From NCBI GenBank assembly GCA_018985235.1, contig JADGIG010000006.1:1-64000 (forward strand): 64,000 nucleotides of DNA, given 5' to 3'. Positions 1,170-59,392 of the stretch are shown here, piece after piece. Position numbers and translations under genes: made by a program. Each line of letters starts with the position of its first letter. The stretch's first letter is position 1. Source of the DNA: Sanchytrium tribonematis (Eukaryota). The notes under the pieces are model-generated. The model was not told the DNA's origin. It did no database searches and was given only the letters and a program-made list of their open reading frames with translations.

Positions 1170-2355
1170 ATGTCAAGTGAAATTTCGGATAAGATTAACA
1201 GTGCCAAGAAGGAAGCTGAAGTACTTAAAGAAAAAATCAAACAAAAGAAAGATTCACTAGCAGATACCACACGTATGTTTTCAAGTCTTTGAAATGTAAT
1301 TTGATCTTGTTTACCAAGATCTGAATTTACGCGTTTTACGCTCAATATACATTTCCTCGGCTAATTATTTACTTATTTAGGACAGAGTACTAACGTAGTT
1401 CGAGCAGTTGCAGCTGAGCTTGAAACCCTTCCTAGAATTAGCATGAAAGTTAGAAGAACTCTCAAGGGACACTTAGCTAAAATTTACGCCATGCATTGGG
1501 CATCCGATAAAAGACATCTGGTGAGTGCCTCTCAGGATGGAAAACTTATCGTCTGGGATGCATATACAAGCAACAAAGTGCATGCAATTCCACTTCGAAG
1601 TAGTTGGGTTATGACCTGTGCATATGCTCCATCTGGTAACTTTGTTGCCTGTGGAGGTTTAGATAATATCTGTAGCATTTATAATTTGAAATCGAAAGAA
1701 GGCACTGTCAAAGTATCAAGAGAATTGAGTGCACATACAGGTTACCTTTCCTGTTGTCGATTTTTAAGTGACCGACAAATTTTGACCAGTTCTGGAGATA
1801 TGTCATGTATGTTGTGGGATATTGATGCGGGTCAGAAGGTCACAGAATTTACAGATCATTCTGGGGATGTTATGTCTTTAAGTTTGTCGAATAATAACAA
1901 TGTATTTGTATCTGGTGCCTGTGATGCTACTGCAAAAGTGTGGGACATTAGAGCGGCAAAATGTGTTCAAACTTTTACAGGGCATGAATCAGATATTAAT
2001 GCCGTCAACTTTTTCCCAAATGGTGACGCCTTTGGAACTGGTAGCTTTTTTTCATGTAGGAAGTGATGACGCTAGTTGCCGTCTATTTGATTTGCGAGCA
2101 GATCGAGAATTAAATCAGTATACACATGATAACATCTTATGCGGAATTACATCTGTAGGGTTTTCTGCTTCTGGCAGATTATTATTTGCAGGTTACGATG
2201 ACTTTAATTGCAATGTTTGGGACACGCTTAAAGGCGAACGGGTAGGTGTGTTGGCTGCGCATGACAATCGTGTATCCTGCTTGGGTGTATCTAGTGATGG
2301 TTTGGCTCTTTGTACTGGAAGTTGGGATTCGTTGCTAAAGGTTTGGGCAAACTAG
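1170..2355 (+). CDS. Heterotrimeric G-protein beta subunit; exons 1170-1272, 1399-2040, 2060-2355
   Basis: Spliced product MSSEISDKI...DSLADTTLRAVAAEL...[16 protein letters not shown]...[15 protein letters not shown]...[12 protein letters not shown] is a complete G-beta. Confidence 0.97.
1273..1398 (+). other. 126-nt spliceosomal intron (GTATGT...TACTAACGTAG)
   Basis: Canonical donor, TACTAAC at 1388-1394; removal joins the coiled-coil N-terminus in frame to the WD40 repeats. Confidence 0.9.
2041..2059 (+). other. 19-nt intron gtagctttttttcatgtag
   Basis: Removal restores conserved [14 protein letters not shown] of G-beta. Confidence 0.95.
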
Positions 2356-2449
2356 CAAATAAATTTATGAATCGCAGCTCAAATTCGCATATACTTCAAT
2401 GGTGTATAATAATGCTTCTGGGCCACACTAAACATATAATTTTTCAAAC

Positions 2450-3137
2450 ATGTCTCGAGAATGGTCTCCATATCAAATGAACGGCGGAAATTGTCTTGCA
2501 ATAGCTGGTAAGGACTTTGCTTTAATATGTGCAGACACAAGACAGTCTGTAGGTTTCAATATTTTAAGCCGAGATGAAAAAAAATTGCACAAATTGACTT
2601 CTAAAACAATTGTAGGATGTACCGGAATGCAAGCTGATTCCATTCAACTAACCAGAAATTTAAAACTTCAACTTGAATTATATCAAAGAGATCATAATAA
2701 GGAATGTGAGCCAAAAGGTATCGCACAGTTATTAGCAATTATGTTATACCAAAAAAGATTTTTTCCATATTATGTGTGGAATATAGTAGCTGGTGTTGAC
2801 AAGATTGGTGGAGCTGTTTTCTCATATGATCCAGTTGGCAACTTTGAACGAGTTAGATATGTTGCTAGTGGTAGCGCACAAACATTACTTCAACCTTTTT
2901 TGGATCAACAAATCGGACATAAACACAAATTAGAACCACACCCTGAGGGCAAAATTGTTGACCCGCCATTTGTGTCTAAGGAAACCGCCATTAATGTTGC
3001 CAAGGACGCATTTATCGCTGCAACTGAAAGAGATATTGAAACTGGTGATGGGTATTAATAATTTATTTAGACTGCAGATTCTGATTGTAACAAATGAAGG
3101 TATCGAAGAACTTCATTACGAACTCAAGAAAGATTAA
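2450..3137 (+). CDS. PRE7: 20S proteasome beta-6 subunit (PSMB1-type); exons 2450-3051, 3071-3137
   Basis: WSPYQMNGG start, RFFPYY, FSYDPVG, ERDIETGDGLQI, C-terminal LKKD. Confidence 0.93.
3052..3070 (+). other. 19-nt intron gtattaataatttatttag
   Basis: Removal restores ETGDG|LQILIVT. Confidence 0.95.
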
Positions 3138-4034: not shown

Positions 4035-4137
4035 ATATATGTGTATAGAAGCAATTTTGTTTGTATAATAATATTAAGATTTAAATCAAGTGAAACTTTG
4101 AATTTTTAAATGTTTTTAAAAGGTCAGTTCTAGCCAC

Positions 4138-5290
4138 ATGAATATTTTATACGCACTATTTGGGATACCTCTTTTAATAGAGATATCTCTGGTAGCGTTA
4201 TTTTTCTCTGCTCGTGGGAATTTCGAGATTATGTCACGTTCGATTATTCTAACAGTATTTGGTGGAATTTTCCTGATTCTGTCCCAAATTTCACTTATGT
4301 TGAATTTTTTTGACATCCCATTTTCCAAGTATCCAGCATTATCGTTTTCTATTTGTTTTTCAATCGGATCGACTCTAATTTATTGGAGAAATTTAAGGCT
4401 TAAGATAATTGAGTTCAAATTAGACCCATTATTTTTCCAACCTACTGTTAACAAGATTGAACACACTGGCCTATTTTTCTCTTTAATCTGGAAGCGATTA
4501 TTAGCTTTTTTCATGCTACAAAGTGTTTGGATTCTTGAGATATACCTTTTGGATTATCCTTTTGTATACCAGGGCGCTCAGCTTCTCATATTTGGTTTTA
4601 TGAATATTATTGTGCTGTATCATGTCAGAGTTTCCAAATCAAAAGACAAGATTAAAATTAGGCAAGAATTGTTGGAATTTTTTATTTTTTGTATGTTTAC
4701 TGGAATCTTTGCAACCATCGATGGTGCTTTTATGTTGTCGACTGAACGCAGACTATACAATAGCAGCATTTGGTTTGTGATATTTGTTTTCCCAGTGATA
4801 ATTGGCATTTTGACTCTTAATTCCATTTTTGCTGCTTATCAACATGTTAAATTGGAAAAGTCAATCAAAAACAATTTTGACTGCTTTGCATATGTAATGA
4901 CAAATGAAATACTATATATTGTATTATTCACTAATGTAGATGTTCAAGGAAAGAGTCGCATCGGACCTTTCAGAAGAAAATATCCTATTTTATGAAGCAT
5001 TTCAATCGTGCAGAATTAAATGTGATATGAATCAACTCATAAGTATTTTCGAAATGTTCATTGAAAGAGAAGCCCCATATGAGCTCAATATTAATGAAAG
5101 TATGAGAGAAGATTGTAGAATGAGACTCCAGAAATTAAAGAACGAAAACAAAGTAGATTATCGTATATTTGAAGAAATTGCGATGGAAGTAGAAATACTT
5201 TTGTATCAAAACTCTTTTCCTAGATTTGTAGATACCTGCCGATCATCTGAATTTACATTAAACGGCAGTAGAAAATCATTAAGTAAATAA
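4138..5290 (+). CDS. Multi-pass (about 7TM) membrane protein fused to a C-terminal RGS domain; exons 4138-4920, 4940-5290
   Basis: Hydrophobic helices, then LSEENILFYE, IFEMFI..APYELNI and NSFPRF RGS motifs after splicing. Confidence 0.85.
4921..4939 (+). other. 19-nt intron gtattattcactaatgtag
   Basis: Phase-0 removal fuses the TM region to the RGS domain in frame. Confidence 0.92.
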
Positions 5291-5327: not shown

Positions 5328-6570
5328 ATGGCAAAGCGAATGAAAACGGAAAATAGCCACAAAGAACAATTCGCTTCTATTTATTCCATTACTGAAAATC
5401 CGGAAATTTTACAGACTTCAAACATTTTAATTATTGGCGCAGGTGGACTAGGATCTGAAATATTAAAAAATTTATGCTTTATGGGATTTGAACACATACA
5501 TATTATTGACATGGATACCATAGAATTATCAAATTTAAATAGACAGCTCCTTTTTTGCGAAAATGATATTGGTGCTTTTAAAGCACAAACTGCTGCGAAT
5601 AAAATGATGGAGTGGCAGCCAAATTGTAAAATAACAGCACACAATTGCAAAATAGAAGAAAAGGATCAACTTTTTTATACAAATTTTAATATTATCATCA
5701 GTGGTTTGGATTCCATTAGTGCCAGGCGATGGATGAATGAAGTTATAATGCAGATTTATCAACAACATGATTTAGTCATTCCCTTTATAGACGGTGGGAC
5801 GGAAGGATTTAAAGGACATGTTAGAGTGATTTGTCCTGGACTGACTGGTTGTTTTGAATGTAACATTGATATGTTTCCACCTACAGTCTCTTACCCTGTT
5901 TGTACATTAGCAAATACACCGAGACTTCCCGAACATTGTGTTATGTATGCGCTTAAACATCAATGGATAGAATTAAGGCCAAATGAGACCTTTGACAGTG
6001 ATAACGCAGAGCACGTCGAATGGCTCACAGAAAAATCAAAATCTAGAGCTGAACTATTTGGAATTGAAGGTGTAGATTTGTTTTTTACCTTGGGTGTCGC
6101 CAAAAATATAATACCAGCGATAGCTTCAACAAATGCTATCATAAGTGCAGCTTGTGCCAATGAATGTTTAAAAATAATACTGGGAATGCAAAATGTCGAT
6201 AATTTTACAATGTATAATGGTGAGCAATCAATTTACACGCATACATTTCAAGTGGAAAAGAATGACGACTGTATTGTTTGTAGCATGTTAACGAGGCACT
6301 TTGTTATGTCTCCAGATAATACTTTACAAGATGTATTAGATAAATTAGAAGATTTGTATTTTATTTTTATTTAGAAGATTACAGGCTCCGTCGATTTCTT
6401 GTGAAGGAAACACTTTATATATGCAAGGTCATGCTACTTTGAGGAAAAAGTTGGCTCCAAATCTGTTAAAGAAAATAACTGATTTATCAGCTGAAACAGA
6501 AATTCGATTTACTATCACAGACAAGAGTCTTTCAAAGCCGTCTTTAAGAGTTATTGTATCGTTAGAATAA
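5328..6570 (+). CDS. UBA3: NEDD8-activating enzyme E1 catalytic subunit; exons 5328-6355, 6375-6570
   Basis: GAGGLG, DTIELSNLNRQ, DGGTEGFKGH, CTLANTPRLPEHC, KNIIPAIASTNA; second exon LRLQAPSIS..LYMQ..PNL resembles the E2-binding domain. Confidence 0.95.
6356..6374 (+). other. 19-nt intron gtattttatttttatttag
   Basis: Removal extends the ORF into the C-terminal domain, ending at 6570. Confidence 0.92.
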
Positions 6571-10117: not shown

Positions 10118-12077
10118 ATGGATCCGCTCTATGTATTAAAATTAAAATGTTGTTATCTTGAAGAACTTTTAGAAGAAAAGTATGATGGCCAGCAAGCTGA
10201 TCTATTGAAAGAAATTGCGGACTTAAAAAGTAGACTGAAAACTAAAGGAATTAATACATTAAAATTGGAATTACAAGAATACCTTCCAACAACTGATGAT
10301 GATAATCAATATATTGAATCACTTAAAACTTTGTTGTCAAATAAATCAACTCCTGAGCATAATGAACCAGAGGCTCAGAGACTTAAAGATTTGGATATAG
10401 AACTTAATGAATCTCGAGTATACATAAAAGAGCTGGAATCCATTAAAGCTCAATTTAAAGACGAAAACTATCAATTTGATTCGTTGCAGCAAGAAAAAAA
10501 AGAACTTGAAAGCAAGTACCTTGAATTACTTCAAAACTTTGAAGATCTGCAAATTAATCAAAATGATCCGCCATCTCCACTACTAAATAAGGGTAACGAT
10601 ACCTCAATTCTGATGGATACTTCACTAATAAAATCGCAAGAGATACAGCAAACTACCTTTCTCGACTCAAAATTAAATGAAATTTTGCTCATGATTTTAG
10701 ATTCACTAGAAGAAATGAAGTCACAACAGGGCCAATTTATTTTAGATAGTCTTGATCTAGAGATATCCAATTTGGACAAAGAATCTGAAGAATTTCTTGT
10801 ACTCACTGACATTGCGAAAATACTGAGAGAATTCAACTCGAAATTGTTATCCGAACTATCCGGAAATGAATCAAATCACATAGACAATACTGGAGAGGCT
10901 AGTGATTTACGCTTTGAAATTCAACATCTTAAACAATCCTTGGATGAACTTCAAAATGAAAACAAGAAGCTAAGAGAAGAAATTAACTCGGCTTCAACAA
11001 ATTTGGACTACAAGAGTAGTGATGAATATAAAAATTTGCAAGAGAAAGTAAAAAATTGGAAAATCCAAGTTATGCAAGCTATGAACGAGAAAGAAAAAGT
11101 CAATAGCACTCTGCAAGAGAATCTTGATTTACTTCGTAATGAGTTAAGTGAATGTTCCTCAAAACTAGATTATGAGCAAAACTTGGTCCAAAAGTATAAA
11201 GAAGAAGTAGAATTGCTGTTAACCCAACGAAAGCCCCTTGATGAAAATTTGGAAGAAAATGAAAATTTTTTGAGATGGAAGAAGGATTATGCCCATTTAA
11301 ATGAAGAGAATGTAAAATTGAAAAGTTATAATGAACAAATTAATAGCAGATTGACAGAAGTAATTGATAATGCAGAAAGTTTGAAAAAAAATATGGATAT
11401 GTACGAGCAAGAAATCCGCGATTTACTAGATAAGTTGGAGGTTGTAAAAGAAGAGAAGGAAAATTTGAATGAAATTCTAAGGGCCTTGAGCCTTAAACTG
11501 CAAGCAAGATTGACAGAAGAAGTAGATGATAAAAATATTCTTGAAAAGTACGAATTAATGATAAATGCCACAGAATCGTTTATAAACGAGCTCGAAGTGG
11601 ACAATGTACAACTTCATGATAGGGTCAGACAACTCGAACAACATATTGATATTGAAATTGGAAAAACAGAAGCAGAAAAATTACGCGCAGAAAAATTGGA
11701 AGACTTGCTTCACCAGAAAGAAAAAATTGTACAGGTAGATGTCGCTTATTTAGCTAAACCGAGAGAGCGTTCAAGAGCTTATCCGACTAAAGCAGGTCCA
11801 GTCAAATCAAATCAAACAATTGGCCGAACAGCGAAATATTTTTGGTTCAGACTTACAACTGAAATATGATGAGCTTGCTTTGAAGTATAAAAAGGTTTAT
11901 GAAGAATACCAAAAATTAAAGGACAGGTACAAGCAAAAGGAAAAGTCTGCAAAACGGTCCAGGTCAAAAATTAGAAACGTTCTTGAACATCAAATAATTC
12001 AGCCAAGGTCTCCTAATCAGTACGAGAATGTTATGCTGCAAGAAGCTTTGAAGGACCTGGAAAAAATTAAACAGTAA
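10118..12077 (+). CDS. Long coiled-coil protein of unknown function; exons 10118-11734, 11754-12077
   Basis: E/K/L-rich heptads; the two ORFs join in frame after intron removal. Confidence 0.8.
11735..11753 (+). other. 19-nt intron gtagatgtcgcttatttag
   Basis: Removal gives KIVQ|LNRESVQELIRL, in frame with the 11820-12077 ORF. Confidence 0.88.
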
Positions 12078-12139: not shown

Positions 12140-13263
12140 ATGATTCGTCATTGTATCAAGCGCGGTATGAAAGAATTAAATTTTGGAGGATCTGTTGAAA
12201 AAGTATACGAAAGAGCTGATTATCCACCTGCAAAACTTGCAAAGACACTTGAAAACGATACCTTAGCCATTCTTGGCTATGGTACACAAGGTCGTGGCCA
12301 GGCTCTAAATTTGAGGGACAATCTGAAAAAAATACATGAAGCAGGTGGTAACACCAAGGTTGTACTAGGTTTGAGAAAAGGGTCTTCATGGGATCTTGCG
12401 CTTAAAGACGGCTGGACCCCAAACAAAGATTTACTTGAAGTTGACGATGCTTGCGACAAAAGTACAGTAGTGATGAACTTGTTAAGCGATGCTGGTCAAA
12501 AATCAAGTTGGCCACAAATCAAGAAACATTTAGAGAAAGGAAACAAAACTTTGTATTTTGCTCACGGTTTTTCAGTTGTCTATAAAGACCAAACAAAAGT
12601 TATTCCTCCTAAGAATATCGACGTAATTTTGGTCGCCCCTAAAGGCTCAGGCACTACCGTCCGTAGTTTGTTTCTTGAGGGAAGAGGTATTAATGCTAGT
12701 GTAGCTGTATTTCAAGATGTTAGTGGAAAGGCGTGGGAAAGAGCACTTTCTATCGGAACTGCTGTTGGAGCAGGTTATATGTATGAAACAACTTTTCAGA
12801 AAGAAGTTTACTCCGACTTGACTGGTGAACGTGGAGTGTTAATGGTACATATGATCTGATTTAGGGTGGTATATATGGGCTATTTAAAGCCCAATATGAG
12901 GTTTTAAGAGAGCGAGGACATTCCCCTAGTGAAGCCTTCAATGAAACTGTCGAAGAAGCTACTCAGTCGTTATATCCTTTAATTGGAGCAAACGGAATGG
13001 ACTGGATGTACGACAATTGTTCAACAACCGCTAGACGTGGTGCTCTGGATTGGTACCCAAAGTTTTACGAGGCAAATCTTCCTGTATTCCGCCAATTGTA
13101 CGACGATGTTGTTAATGGTGCCGAAACTAAGAGAACTTTAGATTTCAACTCCCAAAAAGACTACAGAAGTTTGCTTGAAAAGGAGCTCAAAGAGATCAGA
13201 GAACATGAGATGTGGAAAGCTGGCGTACAAGTAAGAAAGTTGAGACCGGAAAATGCTGAATAA
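12140..13263 (+). CDS. ILV5: Ketol-acid reductoisomerase, mitochondrial; exons 12140-12844, 12865-13263
   Basis: GYGTQG, VAPKGSG, EVYSDLTGERGVLMGGIYG, SEAFNETVEEATQSLYP, CSTTARRGALDW, LRPEN. Confidence 0.97.
12845..12864 (+). other. 20-nt intron gtacatatgatctgatttag
   Basis: Removal restores ERGVLM|GGIYGLFKAQY. Confidence 0.95.
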
Positions 13264-13308: not shown

Positions 13309-14579
13309 ATGTCCGCCGATAATCTTTTTCACATATCTCCAGATGCTGATCTCGTGGTACCACTTCTTTCGCCAGGAAGAAATTCTACCTTATCAAGAGA
13401 ACTAAATCGAAATTATTCAACTCAGTCATTTATATCTGAAAATTTTCGTGAGCATTCATCTAGAAAAACAATAGTATTACTTTTGAAATCATTCATAGGC
13501 ACTGGTGTCTTGTTCTTACCAAAATCATTCTACGACGCGGGATTGATTCCAGCTATTTTTTCCATGATATTTACAGCAGCCTTGTCATTTTACGGTGTAA
13601 AAATATTATTGAAATTAACTCTAATAAGCCCAGGAAGCTACTGGCAAATTGCAAATGAAGTGGGTGGGCCAAAAATGAAAAATTTTGTAGTTATAATGCT
13701 GTTTCTACTTCAGTGTGGCCTGGTTATGGCCTACACTTCATTTGTTGCATTTAATTTTACGTCTCTACTTTTCCAATATTTCGATTACAGCATTGATCCT
13801 TTATGGTTTATTATTCTGATAGCAGTTACTATGATACCAGTATGCTTTACTTCCAAACTAAAGAATTTTAGCATAATAGCATCACTTGGAAATATTTTCA
13901 TTCTTGTTACATTGGCAGCAGTGGTTGGGTATTCATTTCGGGAGATAGCAACAACACCCAAGGACATACTGTACTTTGGAAAGTGGAATAACACTTTAAA
14001 ATTTATGGGAACATGTAAATTTATTTTGATTTAGCAGTTTATGCATTTGAAGGTATAGGTCTCATTGTACCATTAGCGCAAACATTAGAAAATAGTCCCT
14101 CTTTTAGCAGAATAATGTATTACACTACTTGTTTCATTCTAACAATGTATCTGGGCTTAGGATTAGTCACGTCAATTGCATTCGGTGATAATGTGAAGCC
14201 AATCATATTTGAAAATTTGATAGGTGAGAGAATTGTAGGATGTTTGGTGTTTTTCTATAATTGTTCCGTGCTAGTTACAATTCCATTAACAATTTTTCCT
14301 GTATTCGAAATTGTGGATGAACTGGCGGAAGATGTAGAAAAAAGTCTCACCGTTTTACTCAAAGTGCTAATATTATCTTTATTATGCACATTTTCTTATA
14401 CGTTTTACGAACATTTGGACTTGTTAGTTTCTCTTTTAGGATCTTTTTGTTGTATCCCGTTGGGAATCATAATCCCAGGCTTGCTAGGGTATCAAATTGA
14501 AAAGAGCATTACAAATAGAATTTTAATTGGATGCGGTGCAGCACTTGTCTTTATGTCATTGGTAGTGCTCTTCGTGTAG
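13309..14579 (+). CDS. Amino acid/auxin permease (AVT3/4, SLC36-like) transporter; exons 13309-14014, 14035-14579
   Basis: LLKSFIGTGVLFLP, FMGTSVYAFEGIG and LVSLLGSFCCIPL motifs. Confidence 0.92.
14015..14034 (+). other. 20-nt intron gtaaatttattttgatttag
   Basis: Removal restores FMGT|SVYAFEGIG. Confidence 0.95.
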
Positions 14580-14604: not shown

Positions 14605-15397
14605 TTAAGTAAAGGATTGCGATATTTTGTTAATTTGTTCCAAACTGCTGCTTTTTTCTGGTGTGGTCGCACCTGACAAAGCATTCAGATCACTTCTGCT
14701 CCTTTTTGGGGCTTGAGTCATGAGTTGAAATGTTGGCTTTGTGTAATTTGCCAATGATTCAACACCCTAAATAAAATTAAAATACGGGTAAGTTGTTGAT
14801 GCAATAATTGATTAATGGTTGATTCAGACCGTAATATTCCATTCCAGATATTGATCTTGGCTTAGAGTTTCGAACGAGACCTGCCTTTGCCGCTACCTGA
14901 CTCCATACAATATTGGTCGTCTTTCCTTCAAAAAAATCTGCACAATCATCTGGTTTAATAATAAAATATGGACTTCCATCTCTTTCTTCAATACTGCACA
15001 AGTATTGTGTTGTACGCAATACGTCGATAGTTGATTGATAAGACCTCTTCACCGTATAGCCTAGTGGAAATATATGCTTTTCATTGTACCACCTGGCATC
15101 ATTTTTTATAGTTCCTATTTTCATTATGGTATACTGTCCCGATTTAAAAGGTGTTAACGGTACACCTTCCCCAGTCATAACGGGAATTTGGTGATGATAA
15201 ACAATTTTCTTATTCCTAGAATTCTTTTTTTGAGGCTTCTTTTCAGCAATTGGAATTGTAGTGATTTCGTGCAAAAGATCGTTACAAGTGTCGCTGACAT
15301 CTGAAAGGTCATCATCAAAATCGGCAAGTCTTTCAAATTGTAGAATTTTGTCTACCGCAGCTTCACGTTCTGCCCAAACGCTTTCCAGAGTTAACAT
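14605..15397 (-). CDS. FYRN/FYRC-domain protein (TBRG1-like); exons 15397-14786, 14766-14605; start uncertain
   Basis: IGTI..WYNEKHIFPLGY..RSYQS..YLCSI, SGMEYYGL..LPGVESLANY. Confidence 0.8.
14767..14785 (-). other. 19-nt intron gtattttaattttatttag
   Basis: Removal restores the FYRC end NNLP|GVESLANY. Confidence 0.92.
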
Positions 15398-15577: not shown

Positions 15578-16118
15578 ATGACTAGGCCACACAAAATGAG
15601 TATTGACTGGAAAACTCTGTATGAACCAACATTTGGTAAGTTTGACTCTAGAAAATTTACTTGTAGATGTGGTGCGACTTTGACCAAGCCTGCAAAGTTT
15701 AATTGTCTGATGCACCTTCAGAATAGTTGTCCTTTGTTAACGCCACAACATTATCTATTAAGTGATTTGGTAAAAAAACTGGTACAATTGACTGTTAATG
15801 ATCCATTAGGATGGAGATATCGAGTAATGCAAGATGGGAGTAATTCTTTCTAATTTAGATGTTAGGTCAAAAAGACTGCCTGCCCACTTAAGTGCAACTA
15901 GTTATGGGTATGCCTGGACATGCTTCACCTGCCAAACCGTGCTGCCTTTGGATCAGAACATGGTCCTTCAACATATTCAAAATTGCGAATCATCATCTTG
16001 CCTAGTCAAAATAAGTTCAGATTGTAGAGGAAATGATGCGGCCTCGTTTGAAGCAGAAGGATTGAAAGCTGTAGACAAACATAGACTAATGGCTTTCATT
16101 ACCGATTTCCATGTATAA
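15578..16118 (+). CDS. Small protein with two Cys/His zinc-binding-like motifs; exons 15578-15839, 15859-16118
   Basis: FTCRCG...HLQNSC and WTCFTC...HIQNC; the two ORFs join via a consensus micro-intron. Confidence 0.65.
15840..15858 (+). other. 19-nt intron gtaattctttctaatttag
   Basis: In-frame junction QDG|NVRSKRL; matches the intron consensus. Confidence 0.85.
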
Positions 16119-20229: not shown

Positions 20230-21691
20230 ATGACAAAAATTGTGCTTCCTGATTTAATTGTTGTGAATGCTATAAATATTGAAGAATTAAAAGATGATAT
20301 CATCAAATGTATTAAAAATAGTAGCTTTGTCTGTGTCAATTTGGTGCATAGTGACAAATCAAATTTCGCACCAAAAGACAATGAGGCTGCCGAGTATGCT
20401 CAAATGAAACGAATTTTACACCAAAGCACTGTGGTTTCTATTGCACTTAGTGTGGGGACATTGCAAGAAACCGAAGAAGGCAGTAGTGTTACACGTGTAA
20501 AGCATTTTCAGATTCAGGTGAATGCTTTCACCGATTCTACTGATCACAATCTCTTTACCACCAGCTATACCATGCAGGGCTACAATGTTAAGGAGGCTCC
20601 GTTTGCCATAAGATACTTTCCAGGAAAGCCAAGAGATCTCGGATTCTCTTTAGGCACTTCAGAAAGATCATTCATATACCCAAAAGCGCACACTTCTTTA
20701 ATGATGATTATGAACTCTATTTTATTGCCTTCAACTACCAGATACTTGTTTGTGTATGAAGGACTCGAGACTCTCATGGGATTTTACAACGCATTTATTA
20801 CTTGTCTGCCTCATAATTCCAAAGAATTTCTAGTTGATTGTGAAGACATATTTAAAAATGTAATTGACGTCTCACTATATTCAAAATTATTACCCTTGCG
20901 AGTTGACTTTCCAATTGTTGATAAAGATTTATTCATATTGGCATTAGAGCATGGGGACTTAAGCAAAATTTATTCAGTTTCAGCAGAAGTCCCCACTCAA
21001 AGTTGGCCTGAATTTACAGACGTCTACGAACAGCAAATCATAGAAAGTAAAAATAAGCCACTTGAAGTGGGAGAACCTACTCAAAATTACTGTACCAAAA
21101 CTCTGGAATGCGGATATTGTGAAAAAGAAGGTTATATTTATTTATCTAGGATCGTGTGAATACAACCATAGCCTTCAAGATCTACTTCTGGTTGAGAAAG
21201 GCAAGGATACAGCCCTTAAGCAGAACAATAAAGGTGCCAGTTGGAAAGTCCCAAAGCGTCTGCGAACTTGGCATATCGCAGGTATTTTAATTTGCTCTTT
21301 AATACCCGTTGTGTTGAATGACAAGGAACGATTTGGGAAAGTGCTTAATACTTTGAGGTGCCCAGGTTTACTTAAAGATTTGGAAATTAAAAAATACGGA
21401 GGCACCCCTATCAGTGTTGAATGGGAGCGCAGAAAAAATGCCTTGACAGGCGAGACTGACCTGATACAAAGATCTCTTCGACCACAAACAGATTTTCGAG
21501 GGAGAACCAGAGGTCGTGGTGGCAGAGGAGCATCTCGCGGCACAAGAGGACGCGGTCGAGGCGGACAACGACGTGGTGGGCATAGAAGCCCGCCAAAATC
21601 TCAAAATCAGGGTCGACGACCAGATCAAAACTATGGAAGAGGTGGTAGATTCACTGCACAGCATTCTACGCCAAGATACCAGCCATATTGA
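20230..21691 (+). CDS. TOE1-like CAF1-family protein with CCCH zinc finger and RGG tail; exons 20230-21130, 21150-21691
   Basis: IKCIKNSSFVCV, SIALSV, FITCLP..EFLVDCEDIF..VID; spliced CTKTLECGYCEKEGSCEYNH fits C-x8-C-x5-C-x3-H. Confidence 0.65.
21131..21149 (+). other. 19-nt intron gttatatttatttatctag
   Basis: Removal builds an exact C-x8-C-x5-C-x3-H finger. Confidence 0.92.
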
Positions 21692-21809: not shown

Positions 21810-23197
21810 ATGAAATTCATACAGGAACAACAGCCATTACAACGAGTTCCGGACTCAAAACGTCATATATTACATGAATTAGTTGAAACAGAAAAATCTT
21901 ATGCGCGTCATTTAACAGTAATGTTAACATATTTTAGGGACAACTTTAAAGAACTTCTCAATACACCGGAACAAGTTGTATCAGCACCCTTTGTAAAAAT
22001 TGTTTTTACAGGTATACCAGAACTCCGTGATTTTGCCCTTAAAGTTGCAGATGATTTAGAAAGGGCGTTCCGTCTATGGGAAATGGATGAAGATGAGTCA
22101 GTGGGTATCATTTTTATCAAAAGAAGGGAAGAATTCACAATATATAAAAAATATGTAGATAACTATGCTATTGCAATGAACCAAATTCGTGATGCTCAGC
22201 GGAAAAATCCAGCTTTCGGAGAGTTTTGCAGCAAGGCCAGAGGATCAAAAGAAACAGATAGACAAGACATAACGGATTACATGATTTTGCCAATACAAAG
22301 AATATTAAGATACAGTTTACTATTAAAAGATTTGAAAAAGAAGACACCTGTGTCACACTTTGACTATAACGATTTGAGTCATGCTTTTGATGAAATGAAT
22401 GAATTGTCGACACAATTAAATGAAGTTAAATTGAAAGAAGAAGAAACAACAAGAATGTTTGAATGTGAAAGAGTTGTTGAAGGATTTCCTCCACAAATCA
22501 TTTCAGCCTCAAGAAGATTGATTATTGAAGGCGATGGAATATCACCTTCGCTCCAAAAGGCAGCGATGCACATTGTGGTATTTTCTGACGTTGTAATGCT
22601 CACGAGAATAAAGCAACAAAGGTCCATGTTTAAATTTAGTAGCTCAACATCCTCGAATAATCTTGATGCTAAAAAGTACAAATTTGAGAAACTTATATAT
22701 ATACAAGACATAACCAAAGTATTATTGGATAGTCAGGATGGTAAATTCATTTTAATTTAGACAAGGTTATTTTAAAGATATTTGGTGTTGGTGACAAGCA
22801 TGATACGAAACGAACTGAAGAAATATTTTGTGATTTGGTACTAGAAAAGGATATAGGATCTCAATTAGAACAAGTTTTGAAGTTGAGATTAAAAGAATAT
22901 AGAAGAGCTTCTGTAGAAAATAAACCACAAGTGGAAATTGTAAAATTAAGCAAATTGAATGGAGGAGACATAATCGACCTTGAAGAAACTTCATCTATTG
23001 AATCAAATAATACAAATACATCGAGTGTCACAGCGTTGGCTGGCTATTTATTTAAATCAAAAAGCAAAAGTCAAGAAAATAAGACTGAGGACCTGGTGTC
23101 GAGGTCGCAATCGCTGCATTCCAATTCCAGAAGCGGTTCGAGGAATAGTACACTTAAGGCAAATGTGATGTCGCCAGCTAGTGCAAAGTCGCAATAA
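21810..23197 (+). CDS. RhoGEF (DH-PH); exons 21810-22740, 22761-23197 (alternative ATG at 21732)
   Basis: ELVETEKSY, ILPIQRILRYSLLLKDLKKKTP, followed by a PH-like region. Confidence 0.92.
22741..22760 (+). other. 20-nt intron gtaaattcattttaatttag
   Basis: Removal joins SQD|DKVILKIF in frame to the 22835-23197 ORF. Confidence 0.88.
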
Positions 23198-28450: not shown

Positions 28451-28502
28451 CAGAATTAAAAATACGATTATTTGGTAACTGTTTATTACTTAGTAGTCAA
28501 GG

Positions 28503-29159: not shown

Positions 29160-29169
29160 GGAGATTCAA

Positions 29170-33287: not shown

Positions 33288-35070
33288 TTATTCATCTGTG
33301 ACGCAACCTTTGGACGCACTTGACACCGATTTTATAAACTTGTATAGCACACCACTTTTAACTTTATACTCAGGCGCTCTAAATAGCTTGGCCCTTTTTT
33401 TGAGTTCGGCATCTGAAACATTAAAGTTCATTAACCTTTTTTCTGCATCAATTTCCACAATGTCGCCTTCTTTGACTAATGCAATTGGCCCTCCAGTTTG
33501 AGCCTCGGGGCTTACATGTCCAATTATGAATCCGTGTGAGCCACCACTATATTATTCAAAAATACCTAAAACGACCATCTGTTATTAAAGCCACATCTTT
33601 TCCTAATCCTGCCCCCATTATCATAGATGTGGGATTAAGCATTTCTTTCATTCCCGGTCCTCCTTTGGGCCCTTCATAACGAATTATTAATACATCTCCT
33701 TTTTTAATTTGTTTTTCTTCAATTGCAATTAACAGGTCTTCTTCTTTATCAAAACATCTAGCTGGGCCTTTGAAGTAAAGTCCCTCCTTGCCTGTAATTT
33801 TGGCCACACTTCCCTCTGGCGCCAGATTTCCATACAAAATTTGAATATGACCTGTCTTTTTTATAGGTTTGGAAATAGGAAAAATGACTTTCTGACCTTC
33901 ACTTAAAGATGGGACTCGGCTTAAATTTTCAGCCATAGACATTCCAGTGACAGTCAAGCACTCACCGTGTATCCAGCCTTGTTCATATAGATATTTTAAT
34001 ACGGCAGGAACCCCTCCAACTTTATGAAGATCCTCCATCACATATTTTCCACTTGGCTTCATGTCGGCTAAGAAAGGTATCTTATCGCTGATCCTTTGCA
34101 CATCATCCAACGCCAAATCAACATTGGCAGATCTAGCCATTGCAATCAAATGTAGCACCGCATTTGTTGAGCCACCTAAAGCCATAGTCAAAACCAATGC
34201 GTTCTCAAAGCTTTTTTTCGTAAGTATATCCAATGGTTTAATGTCCTTTTCCATCAACATTCTCAAATAAGCACCTACTTGTTTACACTCTTCCATTTTT
34301 TCTTCATCGGTTGCTGGTGTGGAGGATGAGAATGGCAAACTTAATCCCATTGCCTCGATTGCTGAGGACATTGTGTTCGCAGTGTATAACCCACCACAAG
34401 CACCAGCGCCTGGGCAAGCATGTTTCACTATGTCTAATCGTTCCTCTTCTGTTATTTTACCACTAATATATTCCCCATAACTTTGAAATGCTGAAATAAT
34501 ATCGAGTGATTCATTAGGACGACAAGCTGCTTTTCCTGCTTTAATAGTGCCCCCATACACAATGATTGAGGGCCTATTCAGTCTGCAAAGACCGATGAAT
34601 GAGCCAGGCATATTTTTATCACAACCCGGAATTGCAACAAACCCATCATAATATTGCGCACCACCTACCGTCTCAATAGAATCTGCGATAATTTCTCTAC
34701 TAGGTAAGGAGTATGCCATGCCTGGTGTGCCATTACTGATCCCATCACTTACGCCAATAGCATTAAAGCGATATCCTATTAAATTTTGATCCTCTACACC
34801 TTCTTTCACATATGATCCAAGCTCATTTAAATGCATATTACAGGGATTTCCTTCCAGCCACATACTGCATATTCCTATTTGAGCCATATCGAGGTTTTGA
34901 TGCGGCTTTATAGTGCTGTACAATTGAGCCTGACCTGCACCTTGGGATTTTACCTGTGTTATGCGTTTCGAAGTTTTGTTTACTGGCGCGTTCGAATTCG
35001 TTTGCAAATTTTTGGTAAAATATCGGTATAATTGGGAACTACTTTTCCCATGTAAAACAATTGTATTCAT
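33288..35070 (-). CDS. ILV3: Dihydroxy-acid dehydratase, mitochondrial; exons 35070-33566, 33546-33288
   Basis: [56 protein letters not shown]. Confidence 0.98.
33547..33565 (-). other. 19-nt intron gtatttttgaataatatag
   Basis: Removal restores the invariant TDGRF|SGGSHG. Confidence 0.96.
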
Positions 35071-39200: not shown

Positions 39201-40176
39201 CAAGGTACCATCGTTGTCATGGTTGTCAAAGGTAACGTGGCTTTAAGTCCTTCCATTCATGATGCCTGTAAATCTATCGGCAGTGTATTTGTTCATCAAA
39301 TAATGGAAGGAGATGGTTGGTGTATGATTGGAGAAAAAGGTGCCACACCTGGAACTGTAGCTGAAGGTTATCAACAAAGTGGCTCGACGCCGAAAATATC
39401 GAGACTTTTCGATAATATACATGGAGACGGAGTTATATATCCAAAAAATAGCATAATGACTAGTGGTCCAAGTCATGGTACAATTAATTTATTTAGGTAA
39501 ATGGTTAAGAAAAAGAAAAAATGATGGTGCACTTAATCGAGTGCCATTGAATTTTTATCCAAAAGTATATTATGTTTTGGAAAGATGTGAAGGATTGCAA
39601 ATAGAAAATCAAGTACTTCCTAGAAATCCAACGGTGAGTGAGAAGACAGCTCAAGAATTAAACTTTGCTTATCAAGTGGAAGCATTTTTAGATAAGACTA
39701 CTAGAGATCCTGCAGAGAGACAAATAATTGTTGAAATTTTGGTTGTTTTGTACAATATCTTTATCGGACAATCTGATGTTGGTGTAATGGAAACTCACTT
39801 TAGCAAAAATATTCATGTCACAAAGGAAAAGAAAATCAGAAATGACGAAATAATCGATGTTTCTAACATCCTTCATCGAGCATTATCAAATTACTGGAAC
39901 GATTGGATTACGAAAAGAACAAACTCGATCCAGAAGCATCACTTTGTTGAAGACACAAGCAGTAGTCCAACTGATTTGTCTGAGACAAACTTGAAAACCA
40001 CCTCTTCTTCCAAGAGCCTGCAAATGAGTATGGAAAGTGAGGTTGAAATTCCAAATCATTCAGATTTTCTAGGTTTTGAAGGAAATATTGGGCATGCAAA
40101 GAGATTATTTTATGACCTTCAAAGACACGGCAAAGTGGGTACTTTAAATTACATCCATAAGTGTGTGAAGTTGTAA
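36207..40176 (+). CDS. Phosphorylase b kinase regulatory alpha/beta-like subunit (GH15-like); exons 36207-39477, 39497-40176
   Basis: TGLLPAS, DAWVRDNVY, WGHLQIDA, PDYGIWERG, LPRES.SKEIDA, RFLRDG, GKWLRKRKNDGALNRVP. Confidence 0.92.
39478..39496 (+). other. 19-nt intron gtacaattaatttatttag
   Basis: Removal gives PSH|GKWLRKRKNDGALNRVP. Confidence 0.93.
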
Positions 40177-48973: not shown

Positions 48974-49289
48974 AATATTAATTGATTTATTCGAAAAGGA
49001 GCAGTCTACATGAGAGAAAAAAGTTCATCGCAAAAAAAGCATCAGGATAAAAGTGAATTCTCTGAACTGAGTCAACACTGAAATTATCAGCATGGTGCAT
49101 TTATAGTCTTGACAATTACTTACCTTGATATGATTATATAGACTTGTACAGTTTCGACAACATATGAGACTTAAATTTTAGTTCAAAAATCTAAATTAGA
49201 AAAGTGGATAAGGAAACCATATGTCATTCATTGATCAGTGTGGTGGTGCGTTTTCGTCCTTTCCAAAATACTTACGAATTTAATAGTTC

Positions 49290-49393
49290 TTCTTTGCTTT
49301 GACAATCAAGGGCAAAATTATGAAAGGGATATTTTCACGTGTTTTCATTCACAACACCTTGAAACATTTGTCCTGAATATTTTAGGTAAGTTC
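49290..49393 (-). ncRNA. Weak candidate for a minimal U1-like snRNA
   Basis: Minus strand ACTTACCT (49391-49384), then an Sm-site-like ATAATTTTG (49321-49313) and a weak hairpin, in a non-coding gap; canonical U1 loops not recognisable. Confidence 0.15.
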
Positions 49394-49618
49394 TTTGCGC
49401 AGACGATTAACCCAGCTCTTTGATGACTGACAGTATTTAAAGGTTAAGTGGCTGAGTAACTTTTTAATGTAGGTAAAACTATTATAATAATAATTTGACA
49501 AGCATATGTAATAGGCCACTAATTTTGAAATGATATTTAGAATTCTACCAAAATAAAAGTCTTTTTATACTTTACTTCTTTAAAATTGACAACTAATTCC
49601 CTGTAAAATTAAAGGGTC

Positions 49619-52326: not shown

Positions 52327-52375
52327 TAAATGATTTAAGTAAAAACAAAATTTACTGGAAATTGTTTATTTTTGG

Positions 52376-52866
<491 letters not shown>

Positions 52867-54817: not shown

Positions 54818-54830
54818 AATAAAGATTTAA

Positions 54831-55419
54831 TTACAATTCTTCTTTTCTCATTTCACGTCGTTTTAATTCTCTTTCAACGAATCGATCTTTCATGTCATCA
54901 TAACGTTCAGAAACTCTTTCCTTGACACGATCTTCCATTCCTTTCAATTGGTCGTCTAATTTTGTCATCATATCAGGTGTGATTGTTTTCTTTTGAACTG
55001 GTTTTTCTGGTCCTTCACCTCGATTGTACTTTGCATATCGATCAATTCCTAAATAAGTTAAAAATACCGCTCATGTCTTCGTACAAGCGGTGGAACATAT
55101 CGTGTGCCATACCTGTTGCAAAATCACTCATGTATTCATCAAATTGACGACGAGTGTCAGGATGGTCAAAATCGATTTCAGTGTCACTGACTTGTCTCTT
55201 TTTCTTTGGCTCTCTTTTAACAATTCTTGGGTCGGCTTCAGGTCCCATTTGGTCGAAACTTCGCTTATGTAAATAATTTAAATGATCCTCAACGGATTTC
55301 ATTGATCTTTCGTATAAACGCTTATATTTAGGGTGAACTGTAGGATCGTCCATGACTTCCCGCTTCTGAATGTGTCCTGGTCTAGCAAAAATCAAAGTTA
55401 ACAAAATTAATTGAAGCAT
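54831..55419 (-). CDS. Secretory-pathway protein with signal peptide and C-terminal KEEL; exons 55419-55068, 55048-54831
   Basis: MLQLILLTLIFA signal; spliced product ends RREMRKEEL*. Confidence 0.75.
55049..55067 (-). other. 19-nt intron gtatttttaacttatttag
   Basis: Removal opens a 218-nt last exon ending in KEEL*. Confidence 0.9.
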
Positions 55420-55651
55420 TTGTAACAAATAAGCGACGAAAAGTCTTTTTATTTAATGGCGTCTGTGACGTCACCGTTTTTCTTTAGAAGCCTTGCCTAA
55501 CATAAGACGATCTTTAAATACAGAGGTTGGAACATCGAAAACTTCAAGCTCGGCCATTTATAGATCACAAAAATTGACCAAGGCTTGAAATAAGTCTAAA
55601 TTAATTATTGCAAACACGATTTTTTCATAAAAAGACTTTTTATTGCGAGTA

Positions 55652-56264
55652 TTATTCTTTTCCAGCCCAGTCTTTCTTAATAGCAAAGCACCACTCAAAA
55701 TCAAGATGGGTGACTTGATCGTCATCAATAAAACTAAATGAGTTTGATTTACCGAGATCGGACGTTGTATGTACCACGCGCTAGAGCTCCACTAGGTGCC
55801 TCTTCTGGTTGAAATTTCTTTTCATAAGGAGTTGGGTTTGGCCCGTAGCTTCCAAGCATTTCCTCTGCCTTATCAACTTTTATTCCATTACGCTTGACAA
55901 CATGAAGGTATTTGAGTCCGGAAACGACATCGTTTTGGACCTGGAACTTAATTTTGAGCTTGTATTCAATGCCTTCTTTGATAATCATAGGGTTCTTTTT
56001 ATATTCTTCCAATTTGGTGGTATCTTGCAAATTTAAAACGACATCAGATCGCTCGGCAACTTCCATAGCTAATTCTAGCGGAATAACTTTTTTGCCTCCT
56101 TTTGGAACAGCACCAGTGGCCACACCAAGGCTTTCTTTCCACTTTCTCAAACTCTCATCCTCAGCGTCAAGATTTTGAAGTTCTTCTAGAGTCTTTTTGG
56201 CTGGTGCCTTGTAGTTAACGTCATTGGTTACAGCTAGATCATCGTCCTGAGGTTGAGTAGACAT
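55652..56264 (-). CDS. RDI1: Rho GDP-dissociation inhibitor; exons 56264-55753, 55733-55652
   Basis: LDAEDESLRKWKESL, IKEG.EY, MLGSYGP, EEAPSG.LARG.Y, FIDDD..THL.FEW...IKKDW. Confidence 0.97.
55734..55752 (-). other. 19-nt intron gtaaatcaaactcatttag
   Basis: Removal restores VRSR|FIDDD. Confidence 0.96.
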
Positions 56265-56304: not shown

Positions 56305-57648
56305 TTATTTCAAATTTATTTTGGGCTTTGGTGTCAATTGCAAATATGTTTGCCAGTCATCCTCATCACCTATCTCAATAACATCTGTGCCATCTATATA
56401 ACTCATTTTTATGGATTTTAAATTCAATTTTGTAGTAATTTTTAATTGGGCTTCCTTGTAGGTGTTGTTATTTAATAGCATCACAAAAACTTTTCCAGAA
56501 AAGTCAAATTTTGCCGGACTGGCAACTGGTTCGGCAACTTGCTCGTCACTTCCCTTGTTTTCGTCAATAGAACCCTTCCTTTCCTTTGGGGCTAACTTTT
56601 GGGGCTTGTTCTGGAAAGTTGTGGGGGCCTTGAGCTCATTGGGGTCTTCTTTTTTCTTTTCTCTTGGTTTGTCGGTCTTCTCTTTACTATCTGCTTCTTT
56701 AGGCTTCTCTTTCGCCTCTTTGTTCACTTCCTTTGTATCTTTTGGTACGTTTCGTTTGCCTTTCATAGGTTCACTGACTGCAACTCCACTACCGACTTTC
56801 ATTTGGTTCCATGGTGCAACAATTTCTGCGGCACTCATTCCTTCTTTCACTTGATATTTTTTATTGTACACAGTGTCAATTTCCCAATTCTGAAAAAAGT
56901 TTTGAATCAATTGACTGTTAAGAATGTGTTCGGGTAATTGAGCAAAAATTTCCTTGCAATAAACTGCTAGCTGAGCAGCTCTTCGCTGCGTAACATTCTC
57001 ATTGGCAAATGGAACGGGTCCGGGAATGGTAGGTATCACTCTTGTTCCAGAAATTCCGCTCTCTTGTGGAAATGTCGCTAAAAGTGTAAGCTGCATGTCA
57101 TAAAAGTCTTGATATGTCCTGTAAATTATTCTATGGATGTGATCTTTTGAATCTGTCTCAATGAGAAAAGTCCAAACATTTCCTTTTCCTTTAAAATATT
57201 GAACCACAATGGCGAATGTTATATTTGCTGCTGTTGGAGTTGCGCATTCCTTGAGATAGGTAGTTTTTTGCGTTGGTTCGAGTCTCTTCAAAGTCCCATA
57301 AGGTTTTAGGGTTCCACGAGATGTATTCTCTGCTGCTGTGAATCTTGAAAGTGTCATTTTTGGTCGCTCTATCTTGGCAACTTTTGGTTTTATTTCTTTT
57401 TCATTTTGTTTGTCTGCTACTTGATTTGTCTTAACTGGTAATTCAAGTGGTTTTAATGCCTTTTTGATTTCCAGGTAGTTGCTGGGCACATATCCTTCTT
57501 TTCCCTTATACTTTACCAGAGTCCAGTCTGTACTCCCTTTCACAACCTCTACTTCTTCACCCTCTTTGATTGCTAAAGCTTGCAGACCATTTTCGAAGTC
57601 ATATTTTTCAGTACCAGGATCAAAATCAAATTGTAGCTTCACGTGCAT
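56305..57648 (-). CDS. SH3-PX-PB1 scaffold (Bem1/Scd2-like architecture with one SH3)
   Basis: SH3 DW...KEGYVPSNYL; PX RTYQDFYDMQ..L..FP.E.G..R.IP.IPGP; PB1 MSYIDG.DVIEIGDEDDW. Confidence 0.85.
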   Translation of the reverse strand: MHVKLQFDFDPGTEKYDFENGLQALAIKEGEEVEVVKGSTDWTLVKYKGKEGYVPSNYLEIKKALKPLELPVKTNQVADKQNEKEIKPKVAKIERPKMTLSRFTAAENTSRGTLKPYGTLKRLEPTQKTTYLKECATPTAANITFAIVVQYFKGKGNVWTFLIETDSKDHIHRIIYRTYQDFYDMQLTLLATFPQESGISGTRVIPTIPGPVPFANENVTQRRAAQLAVYCKEIFAQLPEHILNSQLIQNFFQNWEIDTVYNKKYQVKEGMSAAEIVAPWNQMKVGSGVAVSEPMKGKRNVPKDTKEVNKEAKEKPKEADSKEKTDKPREKKKEDPNELKAPTTFQNKPQKLAPKERKGSIDENKGSDEQVAEPVASPAKFDFSGKVFVMLLNNNTYKEAQLKITTKLNLKSIKMSYIDGTDVIEIGDEDDWQTYLQLTPKPKINLK

Positions 57649-57942
57649 CTTAAAAATTTATTTTTACCCATTTTTACAATTTATTACCAAAACAAAGCAA
57701 CTACATTGACTCATGCTTGTATTATCGCATTTAAATTTATTTGATTCAGTTGATTGACGTCAAAATGTTTAACGAAGTTGATTTGGATGATTGTCACGAA
57801 TAGATATTGAAGCTCAATTGTTCTTATGGTGTTAGCTATTTCCGATACTTTTGGTAATTGAATAACAAAAAGTTATTAATATATTTGCTTGCCCAGACTT
57901 TCGATTGGTTTTTATTCAAAACGCGCCACTTTTAAATTTTCA

Positions 57943-59392
57943 ATGGATGACGAAAAGAAAGACTTAAAAATTCAAATCCCTGCCAACAAGGATTTGAAGT
58001 CATCTGTAGAAAGAAAAATACCAGAAGACCTTAAAACAGATACTTTTGTAGCAATTGTAGGGCAACCTTTGCCTCAAGCAGGAAGTACAAGTCCAAAACC
58101 TTTAATTGTTAACGCAGAAGACAATCCGGCTTTAATTAAACCGCCAGACCAAGACCCTGAAGGCGCAAGTCCGGGATACCATGAAAGAAAAGTTATGGAT
58201 GTACTTGATGGAAATAATGAAGACCCTTTCACTTTAGATTCGTTCAAAGAATTAATATTAAATCACGCGGATCAAGAGAAAGATTATATTTTAGCCAGAG
58301 TTATTACGATGGATCCAAAAGACAACACACGTTTTTATTATTCCTATTATCCTGGGCATAATATTAATAAGGTTCTATTTAGAACCCAACCTGAAGAAGG
58401 GCTATTACATAGAATGAAAGCCAAAAATCCGCTTAATAATATGACTATTGTGGGTGATGTATTTTACTACGCTATATCTTGTAAGCAGTCGGAGAAAGTT
58501 AAACGAAAAGATAAAAGTAACGATGCGTCTCCAGAGTCTATTAAATCTCCAAGAACGATACAGAGAAACGCTATGAGTGCTAAATTAAAAATAATATTGG
58601 AGCAGTCACCAAAATCAACCTATTTAGTGACACGTCCAGACATGCATGAGAACGAGCCATTAAAAACTCGAAGACCTAGTGCAGATGACGTATTTTCTTA
58701 CACCAAGACTGCGCCAAATTTATCGCCTTCGAAATTATTTCACAACTCTGAATTTTGGCAAGGCTGGCAAAATAATTTAAGAGCCCAAAAAATAGAATTA
58801 GAGACTCTGAGTGCTGGAACTGAATTGGATGTATCCGCTTCATTATTGTCTCCCAAGCAAGTTAGTTATTTAAATGATCGACAGAGTGTTTCCATAAATG
58901 ACTGGATATCGAACCATACAACCTCCAAAGAAAAAGTATTCCTCATTTATTTAGTCTCCAACCATCTTCTATGCACATTATATTGGCAGCGACGATGACT
59001 TTTTAATGAAATCTAACTTTAGACAATTCTTTAAGAAAAACGCATTGACAGATGAAGAGGCTGTTCTATTCTCTCTACCAACAAACTCACTTTACCCTTC
59101 TACACCAAATCCGCAGGACCAACTCCCCCCAAATGACGACCAGTCGCGCCTCAAAATGGTAAGATATGTTCTAGGTAGTTATCTGATGGTTATAATCTTA
59201 GTCTTGGGTGCATTTTTGTTTTCCTCAAAGGACCGTGACACAAACAACGATCAATTTAAAACAATGATCATTGTGAGTGGCGTGTTATTGAGTGTAGTTA
59301 TAGGTATACTTGTAGCATATGAAATATATATTAGAAGACGTGGTAGAGCTGGTAGCGAACCACTGAATTCTAATGCAGACCATGAAGAATAA
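57943..59392 (+). CDS. Conserved hypothetical membrane protein (DUF5092-like); exons 57943-58935, 58955-59392
   Basis: EDPFTL, ARVIT.D...YYSYY, GLLHRMKAKNPLNNM.IVGDV.YY, YIGSDDDFL; two C-terminal TMs. Family name is recalled, not verified. Confidence 0.7.
58936..58954 (+). other. 19-nt intron gtattcctcatttatttag
   Basis: Removal joins SKEK|SPTIFYAHY in frame to the 59006-59392 ORF. Confidence 0.9.

Follow-up and report, generated by a model that had tools for sequence, protein, structure and literature searches.

Introduction

Introns whose putative branch sequence lies against the 3' splice site have been described in both a ciliate and a yeast. In the ciliate Stentor coeruleus, the introns measure 15-16 nucleotides (nt), mostly a multiple of three (3n), with a GTA donor and a U-rich body in which the tenth of 15 positions, or -6 when counted from the 3' end, is a putative branch A that would leave a 10-nt lariat loop; there is no strong branch consensus, and the splicing factors Slu7 and Prp18 are listed as N/A (PMC9505925). 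In the fungus Yarrowia lipolytica, TACTAAC, 2 nt and the terminal AG likewise place the branch A at -6 without a polypyrimidine tract, but the introns are long (median of 204 nt in the published table) and have a strict ACTAAC, an AC spacer and a CAG end (PMC2483917). Here, we describe 19 introns from a 64,000-nt stretch of the fungus Sanchytrium tribonematis (assembly GCA_018985235.1, contig JADGIG010000006.1, positions 1 to 64,000; hereafter, the window), 18 of which are only 19 or 20 nt long and all of which end in TNAYNTAG with an A at -6 that is likely to be the branch point.

Several other systems invite comparison. As in Stentor, the commonest intron of which ends in TTATATAG and thus fits TNAYNTAG (PMC9505925), the putative branch A is at -6, but the tiny introns of the window are 19-20 nt long and never 3n, show a visible TACTAAC register, and are accompanied by one intron of 126 nt that ends in the same way and has the Yarrowia layout. 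Encephalitozoon cuniculi, a reduced holomycotan parasite, has introns of ~25 nt with a TAAYTT branch motif (PMC3629993, PMC2483917), as well as a rare long intron in which U2 pairing is hyper-extended and which is spliced better than the short ones (PMC6349667). However, its introns span 22-76 nt, number only 37, have a strict donor and are in many cases 5'-biased (PMC3629993), whereas those of the window measure 19-20 nt, occur at about one per three genes and have a weak donor and a 3' bias. The E. cuniculi introns were described as surpassed in shortness only by Paramecium and nucleomorph introns (PMC3629993). The nucleomorph of Bigelowiella natans, a relic green-algal nucleus, also has numerous GT-AG introns of 18-21 nt, but these are reported to have no discernible branch A (PMC6009652). 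Narrow length classes occur in reduced parasites of other kingdoms as well, such as the 16-17-nt introns of Mikrocytos (PMC10245619) and those of myxobolids and dicyemids (PMC13644364), although the weak A run of myxobolid introns shifts farther from the AG as length grows, which is the opposite of the 3' anchoring seen in the window (PMC13644364). In Entamoeba the branch is reported as fixed at -8 (bioRxiv 10.1101/2022.06.08.495308), and further context is provided by PMC8476143 and PMC13685798.

The published sanchytrid proteins were called by TransDecoder on genomic contigs (PMC8371127); in that study the string "splic" is absent and "intron" occurs only in a reference title. A search of the literature for sanchytrid nuclear introns and tiny fungal introns, mostly at the level of titles and outside subscription papers, found no report of nuclear introns in sanchytrids.

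Results

The window holds ~54 genes at a GC content of 35.6%, and 17 of these carry introns (about one per three genes). A motif scan and tabulation yielded 15 introns of 19 nt, three of 20 nt and a single 126-nt intron, all with GT...AG ends. The first-pass annotation had listed 19 introns ending in TNAYNTAG, and rescanning the window returned that exact set together with its tallies for the last eight bases: ttatttag (eight introns), taatttag (three), tgatttag (two), and tcatgtag, taatgtag, ttatctag, taatatag, tcatttag and taacgtag once each, the last of these in the long intron. T(-8), A(-6), Y(-5) and TAG were equally invariant (19/19) when the introns were retabulated, and the extended end reads (W-A-Y)-T-N-A-Y-N-TAG. 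The set runs from 1391, which is base -8 of the long intron at 1273-1398, to 58954, the final base of the last intron. CAG was said never to be used, and indeed none of the 19 introns ends in it; as an independent signal, however, its lack was rejected, as 0/18 has a P of ~0.09 when position -3 is taken to be a pyrimidine with the T:C ratio of the introns themselves, so that AT bias suffices. U12-type introns have an RTATCCTT donor and a CCTTAAC branch, whereas donor positions +4 to +8 are unconstrained and T/A-rich in the window.

On both strands, GT[AT]..TNAYNTAG with a total length of 19-20 nt matched 23 times, compared with a mean of 4.25 (maximum 12) in 100 local dinucleotide shuffles. 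Seventeen matches were 19 nt and six were 20 nt long, while every other length from 15 to 26 nt gave 0-3. Two sense-strand reading frames are joined by 18 of the 23 matches, and the other five, which are antisense or intergenic, are about the number expected by chance. The matches outside coding frames at 28475-28493 (+), 55596-55615 (-) and 52364-52383 (+) could be chance or introns of untranslated regions. In-frame introns of 18 or 21 nt may also exist, though at these two lengths the motif does not rise above background, and a search of 15 unannotated stretches for further introns with any 3' sequence found no convincing gene. All 18 tiny introns are non-3n, and 17 of them interrupt their coding sequence in its 3' half (P 1.4e-4). 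This is not a simple detection bias because the motif scan is blind to reading frames. Its direction is opposite to the 5' bias expected from intron loss through reverse transcripts.

That the -6 A serves as the branch point throughout had been proposed from the invariant motif, and three further lines of evidence bear this out by inference, making branching at this position very probable for these introns. T(-8), A(-6) and Y(-5) correspond in 19/19 introns to a WCTRAY-type branch motif upstream of the AG, the general branch consensus being WCTRAYN with T-N-A-Y as its core (PMC2483917). Among the tiny introns, 7/18 have C at -9 against a background of 9% (P 4.7e-4), and 10/18 have A at -10 against a background of 26% (P 0.007); a TACTAAC register with the branch at -6 predicts both. 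The second intron of the G-beta gene contains A only at +3, -6 and -2. Finally, all three 20-nt introns retain A at -6, whereas two have no A at +14, and therefore the position of the A is measured from the 3' end. When only the seven homology-fixed tiny introns are counted, A(-6) is likewise universal (7/7, P 7.6e-5 at the introns' own A content of 26%). With A(-6) as the inferred branch point, the distance to the AG as defined in PMC2483917 is 2 nt in 19/19 introns, which corresponds to the fixed branch-to-AG spacing class of Irimia and Roy. The lariat loops of 14-15 nt claimed in the first-pass annotation are predicted for the tiny class (14 nt in 15 introns and 15 nt in three), but the long intron would form a loop of 121 nt. 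The claim of that annotation that a polypyrimidine tract is missing stands insofar as only three bases separate the branch from the AG in the tiny introns, leaving no room for one; however, positions -5 to -3 are TTT in 14/18 and the intron interior is ~61% T.

The long intron is the first of the G-beta gene (1273-1398, +) and has a GTATGT donor and a perfect TACTAAC directly followed by GTAG, with its putative branch A at 1393. Upstream of and including TACTAAC, positions 1379-1394 (+) are complementary to U2 small nuclear RNA (snRNA) over 8 nt, one bulged G and then TACTAAC itself. Calculated with the yeast U2 sequence (PMC4712673), rather than that of S. tribonematis, this duplex extends beyond GUAGUA to 13 base pairs and -13.8 kcal/mol, which was matched by 8/5000 shuffles of the upstream intron with TACTAACGTAG fixed and by 6/9844 window tiles. 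Such U2 complementarity 5' of TACTAAC is the feature that defines hyper-extended branch points, here in one intron only. The family of long microsporidian introns has a conserved internal region with C/D-like boxes and is hosted by PolyA-binding or S23 genes. The window's intron differs in its host gene, had no Rfam match above chance (the one match near it was at chance level) and has a fold z of -1.76; it may work like the microsporidian long introns but does not belong to that family. Frames in the fungus-like records P0210, P0211 and P0264 break at the same residue, so the position of this intron is likely ancestral. Two other features were noted in the same intron. Its first 80 nt (1273-1352, +) are predicted to fold into a single long hairpin in which the donor is paired (z -1.76), and a second ttatttag at 1373-1380 (+), which is in frame and ends 18 nt short of the true acceptor, is a possible alternative acceptor that would add six residues and overlaps the extended U2-complementary stretch.

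Removal of the inserts restores the protein frames of all 17 genes. Because the introns could have been picked by their motif, we also scored every frame-restoring excision by a whole-protein profile while ignoring both ends and motif. The called intron was top or tied top in 6/7 of these motif-blind tests, and the best excisions share the GT...AG ends. Overall, eight of the 19 junctions are fixed by homology, six are supported by the split or cut of a Pfam domain, and five are called from frame logic plus the motif. In the G-beta gene, the 126-nt intron ranked first of 1245 excisions, and the 19-nt intron 2 (2041-2059, +) was tied top of 1087, with a 19-nt orthologue decoded in the record P0280. 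The spliced protein of 346 amino acids (aa) is identical at 331 positions to the 345-aa P0125, with one gap column; P0125 is a frame on a 1068-base contig and may represent a relative's transcript or an intron-less gene; it is not RNA evidence for the window. The ILV5 intron (20 nt, 12845-12864, +) was tied top of 520, with three relatives breaking at the same residue, and the ILV3 intron (19 nt, 33547-33565, -) was tied top of 505. Both 19-nt introns of UBC4 were also tied top, intron 1 (52725-52743, -) of 709, with UQ_con divided at 35/36, and intron 2 (52422-52440, -) of 203. The 19-nt intron of the proteasome beta-1 gene PSMB1 (3052-3070, +) falls between residues 200 and 202 by yeast numbering, with a split codon, and that of RhoGDI (19 nt, 55734-55752, -) between positions 171 and 173 of Pfam Rho_GDI, again with a split codon.

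The six domain-based junctions include UBA3 (19 nt, 6356-6374, +), in which the E2_bind domain is cut. Its intron was the best of five GT/GC-AG candidates but only 47th of 841 when all frame-restoring excisions were scored blind to the motif, and a representative search found no close relative (best identity 42-55%). UBA3 also has a tandem acceptor, TAG-AAG (6372-6377, +), the first AG of which fits the A(-6) rule and scores better. The amino-acid transporter intron (20 nt, 14015-14034, +) splits Aa_trans at 191/203 and is the shortest of four alternatives; here, too, there is a tandem acceptor, TAG-CAG (14032-14037, +), with the CAG 3 nt downstream and the first AG fitting the rule. In the FYRN/FYRC protein (19 nt, 14767-14785, -), FYRC is cut at 71 of 84 at the exon end, and the call is one of two alternatives. 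KPBB_C is split over the break in the phosphorylase kinase regulatory subunit (19 nt, 39478-39496, +), while the RGS profile of a membrane protein (19 nt, 4921-4939, +) begins at its position 15 in exon 2, with frame logic as further evidence for the junction. For the DUF5092 protein (19 nt, 58936-58954, +), the called intron is the sole frame-restoring GT/GC-AG candidate, and the domain is found in both exons. The five junctions drawn from motif and frame logic are those of a coiled-coil protein with a weak Cnn_1N match (19 nt, 11735-11753, +; 22 frame-compatible alternatives), an unknown Cys-rich protein (19 nt, 15840-15858, +), a CAF1-like protein with a GTT donor (19 nt, 21131-21149, +), a RhoGEF (20 nt, 22741-22760, +) and an unknown protein (19 nt, 55049-55067, -).

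Introns of relatives were decoded from the tails of read-through proteins, eight of which were examined. Orthologues of the PSMB1 intron are present in P0284, P0285 and P0286. Assuming that the frame stops at the TAG of the acceptor, which is the case for the window's UBA3, P0284 and P0286 contain 19-nt introns that end in TNATGTAG and TYATHTAG, respectively, and P0285, from Amoeboradix gromovi, contains a 20-nt intron ending in HTAYYTAG, the next bases of which fit the window's exon (L-Q-I/V-L). In these three tails A(-6) is fixed by a codon. Therefore, tiny introns with this end are common to sanchytrid-like records. The window's own introns have also left their mark on public data. ILV5 exon 1 is present letter for letter in EukProt (P0001), compared with 88% identity in A. 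gromovi and ≤68% in other fungi, and 15/15 intron-truncated read-through frames checked stand as such in EukProt (P0001, P0268, P0283, P0287-P0289 and P0409-P0417); a sixteenth query, the 94-aa middle exon of UBC4, was not found there. Nine further read-through proteins are single-member clusters.

Intron positions are not all shared. The ILV3 intron, which is flanked by a TAG direct repeat, is absent from 4/4 closest relatives, which have uninterrupted open reading frames of 585 aa; either a 19-nt intron with the full motif was gained recently, or the intron was lost once in the sister branch. In the ILV3 and ILV5 trees, the window branches as the sister of all other sanchytrid-like sequences, with support of 0.98 and 0.89, respectively, a placement that fits gain and loss alike. 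A metagenome scan with a four-sequence ILV5 alignment returned 80 loci with a best identity of 70%, none of them sanchytrid-like. The ILV5 junction was readable in 18 loci, of which 14 are uninterrupted and four leave the protein about three codons later at an apparent other intron, and therefore none of the 18 shares the ILV5 site. The branched-chain amino-acid synthesis genes ILV5, ILV6 and ILV3 (12140-13263, 28503-29165 and 33288-35070) all lie within 23 kb, and ILV5 and ILV3 apparently also occur together on a relative's 95,406-base contig.

The splicing machinery was inventoried in the full eggNOG sheet of the sister species A. gromovi and in the first part of the S. tribonematis sheet, by name and by the KO and KOG identifiers of the splicing factors. 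Among those that the first-pass annotation had proposed to inventory for loss or divergence, U2AF (both U2AF35 and U2AF65), BBP/SF1 and SF3B1 have rows in A. gromovi, whereas Slu7 and Prp18 have none by name, KO or KOG identifier in that sheet. The A. gromovi sheet also contains rows for Prp8, Isy1, Cwc25, Prp16, Prp17, Prp22, U1-70K, Dbr1 and Upf1, and rows for U1-70K and Dbr1 were found in the first part of the S. tribonematis sheet. RBM17 and SMU1 have no row by name in the annotation, from which we draw no interpretation. On A. gromovi contig NODE_116, BBP/SF1 is annotated as a pair of neighbouring frames, which is what a tiny intron within the gene would produce.

An Rfam scan of the window at E 1 gave no match and hence no snRNA match, and a tRNA search of the window likewise found none. 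Positions 28156-28294 consist of two copies of a 69-nt tandem repeat (91%) within a 1.5-kb stretch without a long frame. In the intergenic region 48975-49610, boxes reading TGATGA and CTGA lie near 49421-49454 and may mark a divergent C/D small nucleolar RNA, although Rfam gave no match.

Discussion

As judged from the sequence, these are very likely U2-type spliceosomal introns that have shrunk to 19-20 nt, with the branch sequence set against the acceptor and A(-6) as the likely branch point. U2 would pair with positions -11 to -5 in the TACTAAC register, in which T(-8) and Y(-5) would always be paired and A(-6) would bulge out, and branching at A(-6) would create the 14-15-nt loop. An AG five bases past the branch could then dock without scanning, and at so short a distance splicing would have no need of Slu7 and Prp18, the loss of which is therefore conceivable. 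In yeast, Slu7 and Prp18 are unneeded below 7 nt (PMC3392075), or Slu7 at 9 nt or fewer (PMC10158995). The long intron shares the 3' geometry and would need strong signals, namely GTATGT, TACTAAC and the extended U2 pairing, while the tiny introns are probably defined by their length plus minimal signals.

Several observations weigh against this account. Position -7, which is expected to pair with U2, is T in 9/19 introns and a purine in only 7/18 tiny introns, and pairing of the tiny introns with U2 is predicted to be weak (+0.8 to -4.2 kcal/mol). If the branch is placed at -10 instead, the average number of pairs is almost as high (4.0 vs 4.28), though A(-10) is present in 10/18 only. Five introns are without homology support. 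Among the relatives' tails, P0280 (G-beta, 19 nt) and P0003 (ILV5, 20 nt) are only compatible with A(-6), and P0002, P0122 and P0265 stop too early, such that P0002 could even be 15 nt. In addition, the annotation from which Slu7 and Prp18 are absent covers about half of the proteins of a sister species, in a proteome that is 92% complete and was called without regard to introns, and C. merolae has neither factor although its branch-to-AG distances are long (PMC10158995). The loss of Slu7 and Prp18 is for these two reasons only a lead.

Some of these points would be accommodated if TNAYNTAG were instead an extended acceptor read by protein, like the UUUUCAG of C. elegans that is read by U2AF, with the branch upstream at, for example, -10 or at a variable site. 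An A at -10 in 10/18 introns would give a loop of the Stentor size (10 nt), TTT precedes the AG in 14/18, U2 pairing is weak, and A. gromovi has rows for both U2AF65 and U2AF35. However, 8/18 introns have no A at -10, G-beta intron 2 has none between +3 and -6, the long intron carries its perfect TACTAAC in the -6 register, and A(-10) and C(-9) are themselves predicted by the U2 register with A(-6), all of which leave an upstream branch improbable. A somewhat more credible, though still unlikely, proposal accepts branching at -6 but holds that the introns are mostly retained, as in microsporidia, and act as expression brakes, with nonsense-mediated decay clearing the unspliced RNA. The short introns of E. 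cuniculi are reported as spliced at <20%, compared with ~80% for its long intron with an extended branch (PMC6349667), and the window has the same two-class pattern; moreover, all 18 tiny introns are non-3n, 17/18 lie in the 3' half, and Upf1 rows exist. Yet essential genes (PSMB1, UBA3 and UBC4) are interrupted before C-terminal parts that they need, and retention would affect the efficiency of splicing, not the branch site.

The steric demands of 14-nt loops, which have been discussed for Stentor and B. natans, would speak for removal by a non-spliceosomal route or for excision from the DNA. However, the ends are canonical GT-AG with a branch consensus, spliceosome core and Dbr1 rows are present in A. 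gromovi as are U1-70K and Dbr1 rows in the S. tribonematis sheet, and the position of G-beta intron 1 is common to other fungus-like records; we consider this very improbable. Least credible of all is that the breaks are pseudogenes or artefacts of amplification or assembly. Although whole-genome amplification preceded the sequencing of the published sanchytrid genomes (PMC8371127), the breaks have a fixed length, GT-AG ends and one motif, and breaks at the same residue but with different sequence occur in independent assemblies of relatives, which already contradicts such an origin.

The tiny introns and their common end are real and extend across the lineage. The A(-6) geometry is not new and represents a further case of a known convergence, in which the branch reading is likely right. 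The parallel with Stentor drawn in the first-pass annotation holds, as position 10 of the ciliate's 15-nt introns, the site of its putative branch A, is indeed -6 (PMC9505925), and so does the likeness that led to its suggestion of convergence, but the fused geometry was already known in a fungus, Yarrowia (PMC2483917). What is apparently new is that the introns are shorter than the 22-nt microsporidian minimum and any fungal intron that we found in print, and are unreported in this phylum. Also new are the missed annotation, the possible loss of Slu7 and Prp18, and the two-class design that includes a long intron with extended U2 complementarity. A bolder extrapolation, which we offer tentatively and regard as rather less than an even prospect, is that sanchytrids have ~3,300 introns of 19-20 nt (if the window is typical), the shortest in fungi and all branching at -6, and that they have kept U1, U2AF and BBP but lost Slu7 and Prp18, as no acceptor is ever out of reach, with the rare long introns rescued by hyper-extended U2 pairing. 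If true, a fungus would have arrived at the Stentor solution a second time, and the relationship to yeast would be near enough for the system to be rebuilt there.

The public sanchytrid proteomes are cut at introns (15/15 checked, and 17 of the ~54 window genes carry one), which bears on claims of gene loss. The in vitro rule from yeast that short distances make Slu7 and Prp18 dispensable becomes testable as gene loss. Because the putative location of the branch is visible, unlike in nucleomorph introns of the same size, the 14-nt lariat is a concrete prediction. An A at -6 in a ciliate, a yeast and a sanchytrid suggests that five bases may be near the smallest spacing between branch and intron end that the active site accepts. 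For the fungi, the floor of intron size is lowered below the 22 nt of E. cuniculi, in an algae-parasitic fungus of the lineage sister to Blastocladiomycota.

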